UHGV virus genome: UHGV-0036582
Source of the DNA: a virus
Direction: 5' to 3' (one strand)
Length of the DNA: 64,000 bases
The notes beneath the pieces are model-generated. The model ran no database searches. It was not told the DNA's origin and worked only from the letters and a program-made list of their open reading frames with translations. The translations under genes and the position numbers were made by a program. Shown piece after piece: positions 6,549 through 21,089 of the stretch. How positions within the stretch are numbered: position 1 is the first letter of the stretch; each line of letters opens with the position of its first letter.

Positions 6549-7217
6549 ATGACCAAGATCTTTGTGGTTGGCGGCACAAAGGGCGGGCCTGGCAAATCCA
6601 CCGTTGCCCAGCAAATTGCCGTTTGCCTGAAAGTCAAAAAGAAGAAGAAGGTTTATATCACTGATATAGATATTCAGCGCACGACAACAAGCTGGTGTGA
6701 AGACCGTCGACAGAACGAAGACCTTGAGCTGATTCCTTTTGCATACGTTCAGGATGACATCATTAAGCACCTAAAATCGCTTCAGGGTAGAGCTGAGTTT
6801 GTAGTGGTAGATGCTGGTGGCTTTGACTCCGAAATTCAGCGACAAGCGATGCTGATGGCCGACGTTATCATTATCCCGCTGCGTCCTAAGCGTCGTGATT
6901 TGAAATCTTTACGTGACATCGATCCTATTATCGACAATGTTCGTAATGTAAACGATAAAGTGAAGGTCCGCGCGGTCATGAACCAGTGCCCGGCTTTGCC
7001 ATCACAAGTGTCTCGCATTTTGGCGGCTAAAGAGATTGTCGAGACGTTTGGCATCGAGTCTGCGCCAGTCAATTTATATAACCGCAACGTCTATGATGAT
7101 GCGGAAGAGTCTGGTCGTTCTATCTTTGAAATGACCGGTAGCGAGCGCGACAAAAAGGCGGAAGCCGAGTTTGAAGAATTTGTAGATTATCTGTTGAGTC
7201 TGGAGGAAGAAGAATAA
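6549..7217 (+). CDS. parA: ParA/MinD-family partition ATPase
   Basis: Deviant Walker A motif KGGPGKST in MTKIFVVGGTKGGPGKSTVAQQIA; 222 aa; followed by a small overlapping ORF as in type Ib partition operons. Confidence 0.8.
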   Translation: MTKIFVVGGTKGGPGKSTVAQQIAVCLKVKKKKKVYITDIDIQRTTTSWCEDRRQNEDLELIPFAYVQDDIIKHLKSLQGRAEFVVVDAGGFDSEIQRQAMLMADVIIIPLRPKRRDLKSLRDIDPIIDNVRNVNDKVKVRAVMNQCPALPSQVSRILAAKEIVETFGIESAPVNLYNRNVYDDAEESGRSIFEMTGSERDKKAEAEFEEFVDYLLSLEEEE

Positions 7218-16275: not shown

Positions 16276-16566
16276 ATGAGTAATTTAACTTCTTGGGAAT
16301 GGTGGTTGGCAACCTATTTTATGGCAGCCGGAGTCGCATTCGCTTTTTACGTAGGGCAGTTAGTCGTAAAACTGCTGCTGATTAAATTTGCTAGCCATAA
16401 ACGTATTGATGATGGCCTGTGGCGTCTTGGTACCCTTGTGGAAACTCGCTACGGGCAACTTAATGAGAACGAAACCATTACTATCCAAGCGAAACGATTC
16501 ACTGCCACGATCACAAGAACACCTGATCGTAGAGTGGCCTTGATCAAAAAAGTCACAACCGAATAA
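16276..16566 (+). CDS. Hypothetical small membrane protein
   Basis: 96 aa with an N-terminal hydrophobic helix WWLATYFMAAGVAFAFYVGQLVV. Confidence 0.4.
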   Translation: MSNLTSWEWWLATYFMAAGVAFAFYVGQLVVKLLLIKFASHKRIDDGLWRLGTLVETRYGQLNENETITIQAKRFTATITRTPDRRVALIKKVTTE

Positions 16567-17342
16567 AAACATCTCGATAAGTATTTACTTACTTATCTTT
16601 TATGTATAAGATGACTTTGTTTTCGTTGAGACGCGACTGTTTGAACTTAAATACAAGTGCAAACGAAGAAGTCTATCTGGCAGTAGCCTAATAAGCCAAA
16701 CACCAGCGAGGTCAGTTTCCAGCCTCGTTACCGAAATGGGACACACTGAGCGAGTGTGATTGCAGAACGCAGGAGGGAACATTCATGTTCCCTCCGATGA
16801 AGTAACAGAATGGGCGGTTGGTATATTTTCAACTCCATATGACTCCCGGATTCTTAGCCACTGACCGCCCATCCTGTTACGTCATTTTGTTCAATTATGT
16901 CGTTTATACTGGGTTAAAAAGCGGCGACGTAGCCCGGCTGGTATGGTTAGCCAGCACACAACGTTGAGGCCATTACATTTTTATCAATTCTAAGGTTCTA
17001 TTCACAGAGATACCGGCGAGCGTTGATATGTAACATGTTGGGCAAACATTCAATCGGAGTAGTGGCCTCAACGTTGTGAAGACGGGATTGTTGTGTAGGT
17101 TTAACCACTGTTGCCATTGGTGCCTGTTTTCACAACAAATGATTCCATACATCACATTGTATAAATTACAAAGTAGGTGCTGTCCTCAGAAACATCATCT
17201 ACTTAAAGATTTTGCCTTCTATTGAGCGAAGTCGAAAACGTCTGGCACTAACGGAAAGTGCAAGTAGCGGTGCGTTTCCTGGCAGAAACTAACACCGCCG
17301 CGATTGGCACTGTTGAGTAATAAATACTGGCAGTGCTGAATT

Positions 17343-17417
17343 GATGGTGTAGCTCAGCGGTAGAGCAGTTGGCTGTTAACCAACTGGTCGGTGGTTCGAA
17401 TCCACCCACCATCGCCA
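17343..17417 (+). tRNA. tRNA-Asn (anticodon GTT)
   Basis: Hand-folded cloverleaf: acceptor gatggtg/caccatc, D-arm gctcagcggtagagc, anticodon stem gttgg/ccaac with loop ctGTTaa, T-arm ggtggttcgaatccacc, encoded CCA. Confidence 0.8.
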
Positions 17418-17422
17418 ATTTA

Positions 17423-17509
17423 GGGGAGTTAGTCCGTAGGGGCAGCGGGGTAGACTGTAAATCTACTGTCATTGCGACTCGGGTGGTTCGACTCCATCAC
17501 TCCCCACCA
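17423..17509 (+). tRNA. tRNA-Tyr (anticodon GTA), long variable arm
   Basis: Acceptor ggggagt/actcccc, anticodon stem gtaga/tctac with loop ctGTAaa, long variable arm, T-loop ttcgact, encoded CCA. Confidence 0.7.
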
Positions 17510-17513
17510 AATT

Positions 17514-17589
17514 GCCGGTTTAGCTCAGTTGGTAGAGCGCCTGCCTTGTAAGCAGGATGTCAGCGGTTCGAGTCCGCTAACCGGCACCA
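17514..17589 (+). tRNA. tRNA-Thr (anticodon TGT)
   Basis: Acceptor gccggtt/aaccggc, D-arm gctcagttggtagagc, anticodon stem cctgc/gcagg with loop ctTGTaa, T-arm agcggttcgagtccgct, CCA. Confidence 0.8.
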
Positions 17590-17814
17590 ATACAACGATA
17601 AGATCATTACGGTTAATCGTCGTTCATGTGCACAATGACTGGTCGAAAGGTAGTGATCTTACCGTTGTGGTGGATTCGCAGACTGATGCGATAGCTTTCT
17701 TGGATGTTAGGGAAATGCGGCCGCAAATCTTCCCTTTCGCGAGCGGTGATCGTCCGTAGTCCTAATTGGCTGCACCGTATGCCGGAGATTCAGTACCGGC
17801 CACCACAACGGCCG

Positions 17815-17901
17815 GAGAGTAGGGAGCATGGTGCTCAAGCGGTCTTGAAAACCGTCCCATTGCGCAAGCGATGATGGTTCGATTCCATTACTCTCCGCCA
17901 G
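17815..17901 (+). tRNA. tRNA-Ser (anticodon TGA), long variable arm
   Basis: Acceptor ggagagt/actctcc, anticodon loop ctTGAaa, long variable arm, T-arm gatggttcgattccatt, CCA; some stems rely on G-U pairs, so less certain. Confidence 0.6.
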
Positions 17902-18054
17902 ACACAGCGTTGAGCGGTTTGGCCTTTTAATCAACTCGATTAAGACTCCGCTAACATAAACCAGACCGCTCAACGCTGTGATAGACAATTACGGCAGACG
18001 TTCTTAACCATAGCTTGCTAACATCCTAGCAACACTTTTTTCAGCGCAAAATTC

Positions 18055-18078
18055 AAAGGGGCTTCGGCCCCTTTTTTG
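18055..18078. terminator. Bidirectional rho-independent terminator between the tRNA cluster and the convergent minus-strand gene
   Basis: aaaggggc-ttcg-gccccttttttg: GC stem with an A-tract on one side and a T-tract on the other. Confidence 0.8.
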
Positions 18079-18092
18079 TTGAACAGTGCAAT

Positions 18093-19355
18093 TTACTTTG
18101 CATAGTCGCCCAATTTTAATATTTCGCGCTTATATTCATTAACCATGCTACTGGATTCAGTATAAATTCGATTTAAAAGATTATCGTTATCTTTATTTTC
18201 ATTTATCTTAATTAGTGCTAATTTATATTCATAGTCATCAAATGCCACAATTAAATGGTGGCCTGGGATTATATCTTCGTCACTCTTAAAGTATATATCT
18301 TCAAGTATGTAATCTAGTTGATTAGATTTTCTTTTCTCGATGTAATCTTCAGCCATAGCTATTACATCATTCCTGTCATTTAACCTGTTTTTTTCGGAAG
18401 GCACATCTTCGTAATGTTGCACGATTGAACAACCAATAAGGCGTGGGATGTAAACGTCAAAATGAGTAACTCTATCATTCGCGGTTTTAAGTAGTTCCTC
18501 AAAGTAGTTTCTTACATGTAAAGGCAACTTCTCAAAGTAATCATTAATTATAGGAGAACAAGGAGTTTTATAATTCATAAGAACCGACGGTACGAGCTTT
18601 GGGTGTCGAAACATCCAGTCCCTTTTAACGTCCGATGGAACATAATAACTTTTAATGATATTATCAAAATAATTTATCATTCGAGATTTGAATATTTTGT
18701 TGAATCTAAGGTTTATGAATGTATCCAGATAAGGCATATTTGAATAAGCATCATCAAAAAATATTTCATCATTGAAAAAATCATATTTATTCAATAAACA
18801 ACACAGTTTTTCCGAATTAATATGTTCACAATAATCGATTTTTAATCCAAAGATAGCAATGATCAACTTCATCTGAGGTGGGATTTTAAAAATTAATTGT
18901 GACACATACGCTCTTTTTTCCTTGAGACATTCCCCATCAATATAAAATGAACCATCCACATACTCAAATATATTAATAATATGCTTCACATACTGTATTA
19001 CCTCATGCTGTCTTACCAATGGATAATATAGTCTATGTAACTCATCGCTGTTTAAATTAATTTTGTGTTTATCGATAATTTGTTTTGCAAGAAGACATAA
19101 CTCATCATGTTGATTTAATAAGGAATCAAACCATTGTTTAAATGCACTCTTTCGCATTTCGAACAATGATTCAGTTGTTAATTGAAGGGCTGAAAAAGCT
19201 GCTTTTGCACTTTTTCTCGCTTCGTAGGCATTCCATGCTGTTGCTATAAAAGCAAATGCTGTAGCCAATGTTCCAACAGTTTGACCATTTAAAACAACCC
19301 AATCCCAAAAAATGACGGTGAGCAGTAGTATAATAATGAAAATTAAAAAAGGCAT
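18093..19355 (-). CDS. Low-GC membrane-anchored protein of unknown function (two N-terminal TM helices, about 350-aa cytoplasmic domain)
   Basis: 420-aa ORF, visibly far more AT-rich than its neighbours; TM helices FLIFIIILLLTVIFWDWVVL and LATAFAFIATAWNAY; Asn/Tyr/Phe/Lys/Asp-rich remainder with no recognisable catalytic motif. Confidence 0.6.
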   Translation of the reverse strand: MPFLIFIIILLLTVIFWDWVVLNGQTVGTLATAFAFIATAWNAYEARKSAKAAFSALQLTTESLFEMRKSAFKQWFDSLLNQHDELCLLAKQIIDKHKINLNSDELHRLYYPLVRQHEVIQYVKHIINIFEYVDGSFYIDGECLKEKRAYVSQLIFKIPPQMKLIIAIFGLKIDYCEHINSEKLCCLLNKYDFFNDEIFFDDAYSNMPYLDTFINLRFNKIFKSRMINYFDNIIKSYYVPSDVKRDWMFRHPKLVPSVLMNYKTPCSPIINDYFEKLPLHVRNYFEELLKTANDRVTHFDVYIPRLIGCSIVQHYEDVPSEKNRLNDRNDVIAMAEDYIEKRKSNQLDYILEDIYFKSDEDIIPGHHLIVAFDDYEYKLALIKINENKDNDNLLNRIYTESSSMVNEYKREILKLGDYAK

Positions 19356-19985: not shown

Positions 19986-21089
19986 ATGAAAAATAGCTTT
20001 GACAGAGCACGCGCTGCGGAGAACACCTCAAAAGAGGCGATAGAGTATCTCGAAAGAGCATCTCAAATGCAGGCCGTTATGATCTCCCAGGTCAGCAATG
20101 ACATGAGATTCTCGGACGCATTCATGTTATTCACTCGCTTATCTCTGCTGATAACCAGACGTCGGCCAGAGATCGCTGTTCATTGTATTTTGATACATGT
20201 TTTGCCGCACCTTGCCGATGTAAAAGTAAGTGACATTAATAGGTTCATGGTGAACCAACTGGTCAACCCACTAATACTGGATGGCAAAATTGTTATGGGC
20301 CGCCGCGTTTTCTCTCTGATGAAGCAGTTCCTTAGCTGGTGCGCCTTCCAGGGGATGATAGACGTGTCACCGTTAAACGATATGTCACTTAACAATGTTG
20401 CCGGTGGCGCAAAGCCCACACCTCGCGAGCGGAAGCTGACCGACGCAGAGGTATGGGTGTTCTGGAATATATGGGACTACTTCAATGTGTGCGCTGGTAC
20501 AAAATGGGCGGCCAGGCTATGTCTTGTATCCGCAAGACGACCTGACGAAGTACTGCGGGCTAAAAAAAGTGAGTTCAACCTCCAGCGTGGGGTTTGGAAT
20601 CAAGGCAAGAGAAACAAATCAGCCCGTGAGCATTCTCTGCCTTTAAGCACATTAATGCGCACATGCATTGAAGAGTTATTCGAATATGGTAAAGGCAGCC
20701 AGTGGCTTGTGCCTTCGAATAAAAAAATCGGGAATGATCTTCCGATGTCTAAAGTGGCAATAGCCCAGGCATTACGCCGTATCCTGGAACGACCAGAACT
20801 GATGGAGCTTGAGCCATTTACACCCCGAGATTTGCGTCGTACTGCGCGTAGTTACTTCCCAGCATTAGGCATAAGCCAGGAGGTATCACGCAAAATCATG
20901 AACCACAGTCTTGAGGGGATAGATCGGGTCTACGACCGGCACGATTATATGGACGAGATGCGAGACGCCTTAGAAAGTTTCTCGACGTACATCGCATCAA
21001 TCGTAGAGCAACCGGATTTAGACGAAATTGACCACAAATTCAAGGGAGATCGTCTATCAACAGAGCTTATTCGTGTAAATTTTTCATAG
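19986..21089 (+). CDS. Tyrosine recombinase (integrase or resolvase family)
   Basis: Segments consistent with the catalytic R..K..H.R..H..Y set: VSARRPDEV, PRDLRRTARS, MNHS, RVYDRHDY. Confidence 0.75.
   Translation: MKNSFDRARAAENTSKEAIEYLERASQMQAVMISQVSNDMRFSDAFMLFTRLSLLITRRRPEIAVHCILIHVLPHLADVKVSDINRFMVNQLVNPLILDGKIVMGRRVFSLMKQFLSWCAFQGMIDVSPLNDMSLNNVAGGAKPTPRERKLTDAEVWVFWNIWDYFNVCAGTKWAARLCLVSARRPDEVLRAKKSEFNLQRGVWNQGKRNKSAREHSLPLSTLMRTCIEELFEYGKGSQWLVPSNKKIGNDLPMSKVAIAQALRRILERPELMELEPFTPRDLRRTARSYFPALGISQEVSRKIMNHSLEGIDRVYDRHDYMDEMRDALESFSTYIASIVEQPDLDEIDHKFKGDRLSTELIRVNFS

Follow-up and report, generated by a model that had tools for sequence, protein, structure and literature searches.

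The closest described relative of the element considered here is bacterial transfer-messenger RNA (tmRNA; Rfam family RF00023, and the two-piece forms RF01849, RF01850, and RF04321). In that RNA an A-rich linker with A(-6) U(-5) A(-4) precedes a GCA resume codon, a 10-codon tag of the form AN(D/E)...hydrophobic...A is kept under protein-level selection, the stop codon lies inside a helix, and pseudoknots follow it. I find the same features in virus genome UHGV-0036582, an SSU5-type phage-plasmid. A stretch of 64,000 nucleotides (nt) of this genome was analyzed (the window, below), and the element lies at the start of a region, 16570-17342, that precedes a cluster of transfer RNA (tRNA) genes. 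The phage RNA differs from bacterial tmRNA in lacking an acceptor stem, a T-arm, and CCA, without which it cannot be charged, in possessing a 5' segment of ~25-50 nt antisense to the host tmRNA, and in a tag that ends in LAVA rather than ALAA. By sequence comparison it appears to represent a tmRNA-derived RNA family so far unnoticed, whose carriers include HK620, Felix O1-like and Vi01-like phages, SSU5, and Yersinia pestis pMT1.

Phages with a piece of the trans-translation machinery have been described before. Hudson, Lau and Williams (2014) reported ssrA, the gene for tmRNA, only in mycobacteriophages and Bacillus phage G, and an RNA consisting of the tRNA-like domain alone in DS6A, a partial tmRNA that they proposed to interfere with the host system. 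Those elements are complete or comprise only the tRNA-like half, whereas the present one comprises the messenger half and an antisense leader. The Enterobacterales-phage element was not flagged in the phage ssrA survey, which covered RefSeq phages and plasmids. A second point of comparison is provided by trans-acting antisense small RNAs and by the anti-ssrA oligonucleotides of ribosome display and cell-free systems, synthetic versions of which block trans-translation in vitro (PMC3384345). The likeness lies in the pairing at the single-stranded start of the tag region; the difference is that the present element is natural, encoded by phages, and fused to pseudoknots and to what would be a replacement tag template.

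The tag frame and the core around it

The first-pass annotation of the window had described 16570-17342 as poor in open reading frames (ORFs) and dense in inverted repeats. It is indeed without any ORF longer than 60 amino acids (aa) and without any that is conserved, bounded on one side by a 96-aa ORF ending at 16566 and on the other by tRNA-Asn at 17343. The defining feature of the region was overlooked, a tmRNA-like, tag-coding module at about 16619-16770, upstream of the repeats that had been listed, which forms a core of ~150 nt at the start of the operon. The tag frame lies at 16659-16694, on the + strand like all features below unless otherwise stated, and was recognized by alignment to ssrA, by sub-threshold Rfam matches, and by its coding signature. 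It reads GCA AAC GAA GAA GUC UAU CUG GCA GUA GCC UAA UAA, that is, ANEEVYLAVA and two stops, as compared to ANDENYALAA in Escherichia coli tmRNA. Its neighborhood is identical to nt 79-125 of E. coli ssrA at 32 of 47 positions, and no other part of ssrA aligns. A search with Rfam covariance models, one of the checks that had been proposed, was run on the window and three relatives and returned tRNAs and, at the tag only, matches to tmRNA families, the sole non-tRNA signals of the region. The best scores (10-11 bits for RF00023, 17-18 for RF01849 and RF01850, and 20-30 for RF04321) fall short of thresholds of 47-84 bits.

The relatives on which much of the argument depends are numerous. The region is 98% identical in Escherichia phages Cyrano and CMS-2020a and 73-82% identical in Salmonella phage SSU5, Y. 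pestis pMT1, and Klebsiella and Enterobacter phage-plasmids, with matches in 773 plasmid records and 317 phage records altogether. A sub-segment of ~110 nt (about 16607-16761) was found by BLAST in unrelated phages as well, and a pattern scan of IMG/VR for the core gave more than 120 loci. The carriers comprise Felixounavirus, Mooglevirus, Kolesnikvirus, Ackermannviridae, several siphoviruses, and P22/lambda-like phages, the lambdoid form of the core being present in 677 of 50,697 phage records. Among 5426 complete E. coli genomes, 350 contain the core, at 141 chromosomal and 219 plasmid places. Lambdoid prophages have it in the late leader, between Q and the holin gene (in HK620 between pR'/qut and the holin gene), Citrobacter phage Michonne within a tRNA cluster, and Klebsiella phage Carvaje upstream of tRNA-Ser. 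No annotation of the core exists in the phage records and E. coli genomes examined, and a full-text literature search, incomplete in its coverage, found no published description of the element.

The tags of these relatives include ANEDTYLAVA, ANDNQYLAVA, ANEEMYLAVA, ANDEQFLAVA, ANDNVFLAVA, ANDAQFLAVA, and others, and their variation was assessed with 22 distinct tags from 117 loci, collected by anchoring on the downstream sequence only. Of the 10 codons, 2 vary at the first position, 4 at the second, and 8 at the third, and the tag frame has 8 synonymous alternative codons (in the sets AAC/AAT, GAT/GAC, GAA/GAG, TTC/TTT, GCA/GCC, GTA/GTG, and GCC/GCT/GCG), whereas the two remaining frames have 0 and 3. 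Replacements, where not conservative (D/E, Y/F), are limited to codons 4 and 5. The stop that follows is TAA, TAG, or TGA, depending on the relative, always in the same place. There is no start codon for the frame that is conserved in the relatives: ATG, GTG, and CTG codons overlapping the region of the resume codon are not conserved, and in the SSU5-type copies the frame is closed by a UAA two codons before the tag. What precedes the tag is a single-stranded, A-rich linker with AAAUACAAGU before GCA in the window and AUAAAU in relatives. The sequence AUAAAU-GCA-AAC-GA agrees with the Rfam consensus of permuted and alpha tmRNA, and A(-6) U(-5) A(-4) is kept in most phage groups. Judging from these comparisons, the tag appears to be translated, is under protein-level selection, and behaves like the tag frame of a tmRNA and not like an ordinary ORF.

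Two conventional explanations may be considered at this point, a small ORF or leader peptide and a remnant of host ssrA from an integration site; taken together I regard them as very improbable. In some groups an ATG or GTG does overlap the resume codon in the -1 frame (MQTKK.IWQ*). However, the start varies among ATG, GTG, and CTG, and the stop of that frame is lost in the GTG variants. This -1 frame, considered as a coding sequence in its own right, shows 0-3 synonymous as against 22-24 non-synonymous alternatives, with neither start nor stop conserved, and was rejected. As for a remnant, many phages integrate at ssrA. Nonetheless, the element occurs also in virulent phages and non-integrating phage-plasmids, with promoters of its own, its tag has the phage-specific ending ...LAVA, and no more than 47 nt of it resemble E. 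coli ssrA.

The tag is followed by structures whose conservation was examined in two alignments: A2, 13 diverged copies of the SSU5 family folded by RNAalifold (one long-range helix removed), and A4, 26 relatives from outside that family. A helix predicted by RNAalifold, UGGC/GCCA, surrounds the last tag codons and the stops (16678-16698), as helix 5 does in tmRNA, and is 100% paired in both alignments, with G-C/G-U variation. Next (16706-16741) comes hairpin Hb, 16706-16711/16723-16728, whose loop UUCC (16717-16720) would form a pseudoknot with GGGA (16738-16741). In A4, the stop-codon helix, Hb, and the pseudoknot are together 99.7% paired, with 5 compensatory pairs (31 cells); the variants in Hb and the pseudoknot are CCAG:CUGG, CCGA:UCGG, and CCAA:UUGG. 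None of 500 shuffled alignments equals this covariation and controls slid along the alignment give 0. Within the SSU5 family the positions of Hb and the pseudoknot are invariant, and the pseudoknot of the window rests on homology. The core closes (16743-16770) with hairpin Hc (ACACU/AGUGU, 16743-16757), part of the RNAalifold structure, and possibly a weak second pseudoknot, for which only 3 base pairs (bp) can be formed in the window, loop GCG at 16750-16752 with UGC at 16761-16763. The second hairpin-pseudoknot of relatives covaries by eye (GGCCC:GGGC, GGCCCUGA:UCAGGGC, GGCGGGAG:CUCCCGCC, and GCCCAC:GUGGGC). The predicted pseudoknots resemble the tmRNA layout, with PK2-PK4 as their possible counterparts.

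What the region does not contain is a recognizable tRNA-like domain. Neither ARAGORN nor Rfam found one, with its acceptor stem bearing G3-U70, T-arm, and 3' CCA: ARAGORN at default settings reported no tmRNA and only 4 tRNAs, and Rfam reported no such domain in 16400-18200, whether at the gathering threshold or at E<=10. Relaxed scanning, also proposed earlier, did not help, since ARAGORN at thresholds of 70-80% picked the tag and placed the tRNA-like domains inside coding sequence, for which reason these tmRNA calls were rejected. The suggestion that the repeats might be degenerate tRNA-like elements likewise found no support, no tRNA or tRNA-like gene being detected by either program inside 16570-17342. 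No complement of the leader that might serve as a closing stem like helix 2 was found elsewhere in the window, nor does the window have a separate upstream acceptor piece as in two-piece tmRNA, the upstream sequence consisting of the 96-aa ORF and a promoter. A permuted tmRNA using an upstream tRNA or hairpin A was rejected because no complementary acceptor strand or CCA could be found, and a reading of the tRNA-like hairpins as Y RNA (YrlA) was rejected because Rfam gave no match. In Michonne the match to the permuted model makes use of the T-arm of an ordinary tRNA-Ile, again with no complementary acceptor strand.

The position of the promoter bears on the same question. A promoter-like element, TTTACT-17 nt-TAAGAT, can be discerned by eye at 16584-16612 and is conserved in the SSU5, pMT1, and Enterobacter copies; transcription would presumably start near G16619. 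Better promoters occupy the same place in relatives: TTGACA-17-TAAGAT in Michonne, TTGACA-17-TAATCT in Erwinia phage Rouille, and TTGTCA-17-TATAGT in Vi01. In the SSU5-, Felix-, and Erwinia-phage copies the promoter stands directly upstream of GUUUUCG (~95 nt further upstream in the Vi01 type), so that the RNA would lack a 5' acceptor strand.

The tRNA-like domain might instead come from a neighboring module of the same phage, either a long-hairpin cargo with a T-arm or the module C described below, which would join the coding piece in the manner of two-piece tmRNAs. To such a split but self-sufficient tmRNA I give a small weight. A canonical T-arm does abut an acceptor-like stem just 3' of the core in L014/L104, L019, Carvaje, and L190, the third pair of that stem is G-U in L014-type copies, a tRNA-like module further downstream (module C, 17662-17811 in the window) encodes ACCA in HK620 and L106, and there are the weak matches to Rfam's permuted tmRNA model. 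Yet no such module is common to all groups, and the Felix-type copies are bounded by nothing more than ordinary tRNAs (tRNA-Ile and tRNA-Arg). In the window, the hairpin loops have no T-loop and module C has no CCA, and the sequences held in such hairpins elsewhere are hypervariable. The acceptor-like stems, moreover, are closed hairpins, each module containing the two strands of its own stem and leaving nothing for the coding piece to pair with, and the tRNA-like domains of ARAGORN appear only at relaxed thresholds and inside coding sequence. A separate observation concerns locus L190, where an acceptor/T-arm minihelix, GCACACAACTGAGTGGCGGTTCGAATCCGCAGGTGTGC, lies directly 3' of the core (6975-7022); it could be an RNase P signal that sets the 3' end of the core.

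The leader and its fit to host tmRNA

The leader (16619-16658) consists of two antisense blocks and then the A-rich linker, which ends in AUACAAGU with the resume signal. The first block, GUUUUCGUUG (16619-16628), is complementary to nt 95-104 of E. coli tmRNA and the second, GCGACUGUUU (16633-16642), to nt 82-91. RNAduplex predicts for the window leader two 10-bp helices on ssrA 81-105, covering U85/A86, the resume codon G90-C91, and tag codons 3-5 of the host. All of 55 distinct leaders, from at least 4 phage groups, map to ssrA 55-107, with a mean duplex energy of -33 kcal/mol on host tmRNA as compared to -14 on their own tag regions. The block GCGAC matches the host sequence AGUC-GC and not the AAAU, AAGU, or AACU that stands before the phage's own resume codon.

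Duplex energy proved uninformative as a statistic for antisense matching, random 30-mers reaching -30 kcal/mol, and was replaced by the comparison of host with self and by a Watson-Crick-only alignment to the reverse complement of ssrA, evaluated against 1000 dinucleotide shuffles. By the latter measure seven relatives have p values from 0.001 to 0.015 (0.001 for L014, 0.002 for Rouille and L068, 0.004-0.008 for Felix-type and Vi01, and 0.015 for HK620), and the alignment scores of the leaders in the sense direction are at background level. Different phage groups retain different parts of the same antisense sequence. This may be seen by setting the leaders beside the reverse complement of E. 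coli ssrA nt 107-54, GUAGUUUUCGUCGUUUGCGACUAUUUUUUGCGGCUUUUUACGAGG..., with mismatches to it in lower case: CAGUUUUCGUCacGUUaGCGACU..UUUGCGGaCUUUUUA (lambdoid, L014), UAGUUUUCGUuagcguaGCGuCUAUUUU (Felix-type), GUAGUUUUCGUugggUaUGCuuCUAUUUUU (Erwinia phage Rouille), CAGUUUUCGUCauaGUUaGCGgCUgUUUUU (L068), and GUUUUCGUUGagacGCGACUGUUU (the window). Rouille, for example, has GCUUCUAUUUUU where the reverse complement of E. coli ssrA has GCGACUAUUUUU. Within the SSU5 family the variation of the leader is concentrated in a predicted 4-nt internal loop, AGAC, and also at the ends of the helices. These alignments and predicted pairings show the leader to be complementary to the host tmRNA rather than to the element itself.

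In the Ackermannviridae (L207, which is Vi01, at ~478-560, and L206 and L208), the antisense block UUUUCGUUC lies in a 23-bp hairpin with an upstream, sense-like copy, GAACGAAAAGC. The hairpin could be a built-in mask of the leader or an RNase III site.

A selected tag without a tRNA-like domain, together with a leader antisense to the host tmRNA, led me to propose that the element docks on that tmRNA. The RNA would be derived from tmRNA, reduced to the messenger half, provided with an antisense leader, and able to replace the host tag with its own; this is the reading I favor, though doubt slightly outweighs belief in it. According to the proposal, the phage RNA base-pairs with the host tmRNA, which would contribute the alanine-charged tRNA-like domain, the binding of SmpB, and entry into the ribosome. 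The duplex would mask the nucleotides that set the host frame (U85 and A86), the resume codon, and the first codons of the host tag. Because the duplex is antiparallel, the linker and resume codon of the phage would emerge on the pseudoknot-1 side of the masked region, with the resume signal and tag frame 15 nt past the duplex (up to ~36 nt in other groups) and beside host pseudoknot 1. The hybrid would thus present the host tRNA-like domain, helix 2, an intact pseudoknot 1 (in the SSU5 type), and then the phage tag template, and rescued ribosomes would translate the phage tag and not that of the host. As to its effect, the element may act as a parasitic tag cassette that pairs to host tmRNA, silences the host tag, and has rescued ribosomes append AN(D/E)xx(Y/F)LAVA, a possibility I advance tentatively. 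The start of transcription, the processing, docking in vivo, and the use of the phage tag as a template are all things that I infer.

Several points weigh against docking and the swapping of tags. The model requires the ribosome to accept as template an RNA attached to tmRNA by nothing more than base pairing. The SSU5-type leader of the window taken alone is not significantly antisense (p about 0.12 by Watson-Crick alignment, z = -1.4), and RNAduplex energies of -26 to -34 kcal/mol on ssrA are common for random 30-mers; the antisense case therefore rests on the relatives, which are of common descent and not independent of one another. In the Felix-type leaders the GCGAC block is interrupted by a mismatch, and lambdoid-type leaders would also unfold host pseudoknot 1. 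The promoter of the window has 8 of 12 consensus positions, falls below the threshold of a promoter scan, and was not called. Finally, the phage tag retains the appearance of a degradation tag, with its hydrophobic ...VA end and a C-terminus of LAVA as compared to ALAA in the host, which puts in question what would be gained by a swap. Tags ending in LVA are strong ClpXP degrons. The phage tag also keeps the positions reported to be the determinants for SspB (A, A, N, D, and Y; Flynn et al. 2001).

The RNA might instead be purely antisense, blocking host tmRNA or causing its destruction (e.g., by RNase III acting on the duplex) and thereby shutting down host tagging. The tag part would then not serve as a template but would be a relic of the tmRNA fragment that gave rise to the element, or a decoy for SmpB or S1. 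Such an RNA would account for the complementarity of the leader to ssrA 55-107 and for the lack of a tRNA-like domain, and it would have a precedent in the oligonucleotides that block trans-translation in vitro. It would not account for a tag frame under protein-level purifying selection, with three different stop codons in one place, nor for the retention of A(-6) U(-5) A(-4) in most groups, and a codon-periodic pattern is not expected of a relic or decoy. I consider it unlikely.

The remainder of the region and the tRNA operon

Downstream of the core lie the inverted repeats that first drew attention to the region. All three exist, displaced by 1-6 nt from the places given for them and mostly longer than described. 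The palindrome placed at about 16771-16794 is perfect (11+2+11) and lies at 16772-16795; as a hairpin (I12), it has compensatory changes in the SSU5 family in 4 of its 9 pairs. The second, put down as a 16-nt repeat at about 16803-16880, has arms of 22 nt, 91% complementary and 45 nt apart (16797-16818/16864-16885), and the third, a 15-nt repeat at about 16958-17078, has arms of 20 nt, 95% complementary and 82 nt apart (16957-16976/17059-17078). These last two form long hairpins. I1 (16797-16885) has a stem of 22-25 bp and a variable 45-nt loop, with 25 pairs that are 100% paired in A2, where seven show G-C/G-U changes and one a compensatory change; the sequence of its stem is almost invariant in the SSU5 family. 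I3 (16957-17078), with a 20-bp stem and a structured 82-nt loop, has 3 compensatory pairs. A helix UUAUGUCGUU/GGCGACGUAG (16895-16904/16923-16932) and a hairpin GCUGGU-7 nt-GCCAGC (16937-16955), both taken from the RNAalifold structure and both 100% paired, join I3 in a three-helix junction; a single compensatory change, G-C to A-U, occurs in the hairpin. The 3' domain (17079-17342) is less conserved, has small covarying hairpins (by pair counts for helices 10-14 of A2), includes a motif that does not vary, AUGAUUCCAUACAUC (17140-17154), and extends to the 5' end of tRNA-Asn. I12, I1, the junction, and the 3' domain are conserved, specifically in the SSU5 family.

The fold of the whole is far more stable than chance would have it, -253.5 kcal/mol for the 725-nt RNA as compared to -198 +/- 8 in shuffled sequences (z = -6.6), and the same is true of single hairpins (z = -5.0 for I1 and -6.3 for I3). 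The 114 pairs predicted from A2 are 99.3% paired, with compensatory double changes in 13 of them. This was equaled by none of 500 shuffles, and slid controls gave 0-3 compensatory pairs. The structures are thus conserved among relatives rather than peculiar to the window, and the comparison of aligned relatives that had been suggested as a check comes out in favor of a structured non-coding RNA. The hairpins of the region are RNA structures. As for the companion suggestion of a tRNA-processing leader, it describes at best the 3' two thirds of the region and does not cover the tmRNA-like 5' part.

Three side observations concern I12, I1, and I3. In one IMG/VR copy (L118, 3543-3704), a deletion joins the 5' arm of I12 to I1 (GGAGGGAACAGAATGGGCGG), so that at least one natural variant can do without I12. 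At 16813-16822, within the 5' arm of I1, stands GGGCGGTTGG, the same in sense as the 5' strand of pseudoknot 1 in E. coli ssrA (nt 53-62), and the partner arm is accordingly complementary to that stretch of host ssrA, possibly by coincidence. In Y. pestis pMT1 (L008, ~2007-2020), the copy is cut just after I3 by the caf1R/F1-capsule locus, the tmRNA-like core and promoter being intact.

From 16584 to 18081 the sequence looks like one operon of non-coding RNA and tRNA genes. After tRNA-Asn (17343-17417) come tRNA-Tyr (17423-17509), tRNA-Thr (17514-17589), a long hairpin with a 24-bp stem (I2, 17587-17673), module C, tRNA-Ser (17814-17900), and another long hairpin, with a 20-bp stem (I4, 17903-17980). 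Only one strong intrinsic terminator follows, at 18055-18081, and the region and the tRNA genes are therefore probably a single transcription unit. With regard to tRNA-Ser(UGA), the sequence 17813-17900 scores 46.6 bits on Rfam's tRNA-Sec model (threshold 47) and is missed by the tRNA model at its gathering threshold; most simply, it is a class II tRNA-Ser.

I3, I2, and I4 belong to a family of hairpins with arms CACAAC-...-AUUAC/GUAGUG-...-GUUGUG, and the arms of I3 resemble those of a family in lambdoid phages. There the arms are constant and the 40-90 nt of cargo between them hypervariable, some cargos having a canonical T-arm that abuts the 3' arm. The notion of tRNA-like elements thus retains something in the relatives of the long hairpins, and nothing in the loops of I1 and I3 themselves, which lack a T-loop. 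The constant arms, of ~20 nt, read CACAAC-AGGTAAGAGCATT ... AGTGCTCTTTCC-GTTGTGGTG and enclose more than 10 unrelated cargo sequences; sites are found at L004 1620-1740 and L006 1621-1715, in L014, L019, L026, and others, and at 16957-17078, 17587-17673, and 17903-17980 in the window. The arrangement resembles a scaffold for cassettes of small structured RNAs. A reading of the hairpins as integron attC-like sites or miniature inverted-repeat transposable elements was set aside because the core-site motifs do not fit. Module C itself (L004 ~1745-1815 in addition to the window copy) is closed by a 12-bp stem, CCGTTGTGGTGG/CCACCACAACGG, and includes two hairpins that are conserved and covary. Its lambdoid version terminates in ...GCCGGC-CACCACA-A-CCA, with discriminator and CCA encoded, and in the window the CCA end is replaced by pairing, with tRNA-Ser next.

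Stems of this kind have parallels in the RNase III stems of ribosomal RNA operons and of T7 early RNA, where 20-25-bp stems likewise stand around variable RNA and between functional RNAs, and the end of the region at the 5' end of a tRNA recalls the tRNA punctuation of polycistronic transcripts. The length at which a stem becomes a plausible substrate for RNase III, about two turns or more of near-perfect double-stranded RNA, is reached by I1 (22-25 bp), I3 (20), I2 (24), and I4 (20). The present stems differ in the constant arms and hypervariable cargo of relatives, which those systems are not known to have, and by their length they are candidate cleavage sites. I presume the long hairpins to be modules for stability and for processing of the RNase III/RNase P type. 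In the docking proposal, the ~570 nt that remain beyond the core would be conserved, structured spacers serving to process and stabilize pieces of the transcript, the 20-25-bp stems would be RNase III-type substrates, and the end of the region would be the RNase P site of tRNA-Asn.

One could go further and suppose the entire region to be an ordinary structured leader or spacer of a tRNA operon, its likeness to tmRNA without present function. Its position just before four tRNA genes that share one terminator, the suitability of the stems for RNase III, and the frequent, though not invariable, presence of the core beside tRNA genes in other phages all fit such a view. What makes it improbable is that the core, with its coding signature and covarying pseudoknots, is kept in at least four unrelated phage groups, and that no tRNA gene lies within 1.1 kb of ~60% of the lambdoid copies.

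The tRNA block (17340-17924) shares ~92% identity with its counterparts in the P1-like phages P7 and D6, which lack the tmRNA-like part, and this identity points to an exchange of tRNA modules between the SSU5-type and P1-like families of phage-plasmids. Beyond the terminator, a 420-aa ORF on the opposite strand (18093-19355, -) lies in sequence that is AT-rich by eye and is followed by a glutaredoxin-like ORF and then by a tyrosine-integrase-like ORF (19986-21089, +), annotated as integrase in Cyrano. The segment immediately after the operon looks like a variable accessory region.

Meaning for phages and their hosts

The element could be added to libraries of RNA families, and apparently empty regions of phage genomes could then be annotated. 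If only the antisense part of the proposal holds, it would be the first natural anti-tmRNA known to me. If the docking model is true, the element would be a natural hybrid tmRNA assembled in trans, an instance of viral reprogramming of ribosome rescue and proteolysis: phages would re-code the ribosome-rescue tag, a new type of interaction between virus and host, at the ribosome.

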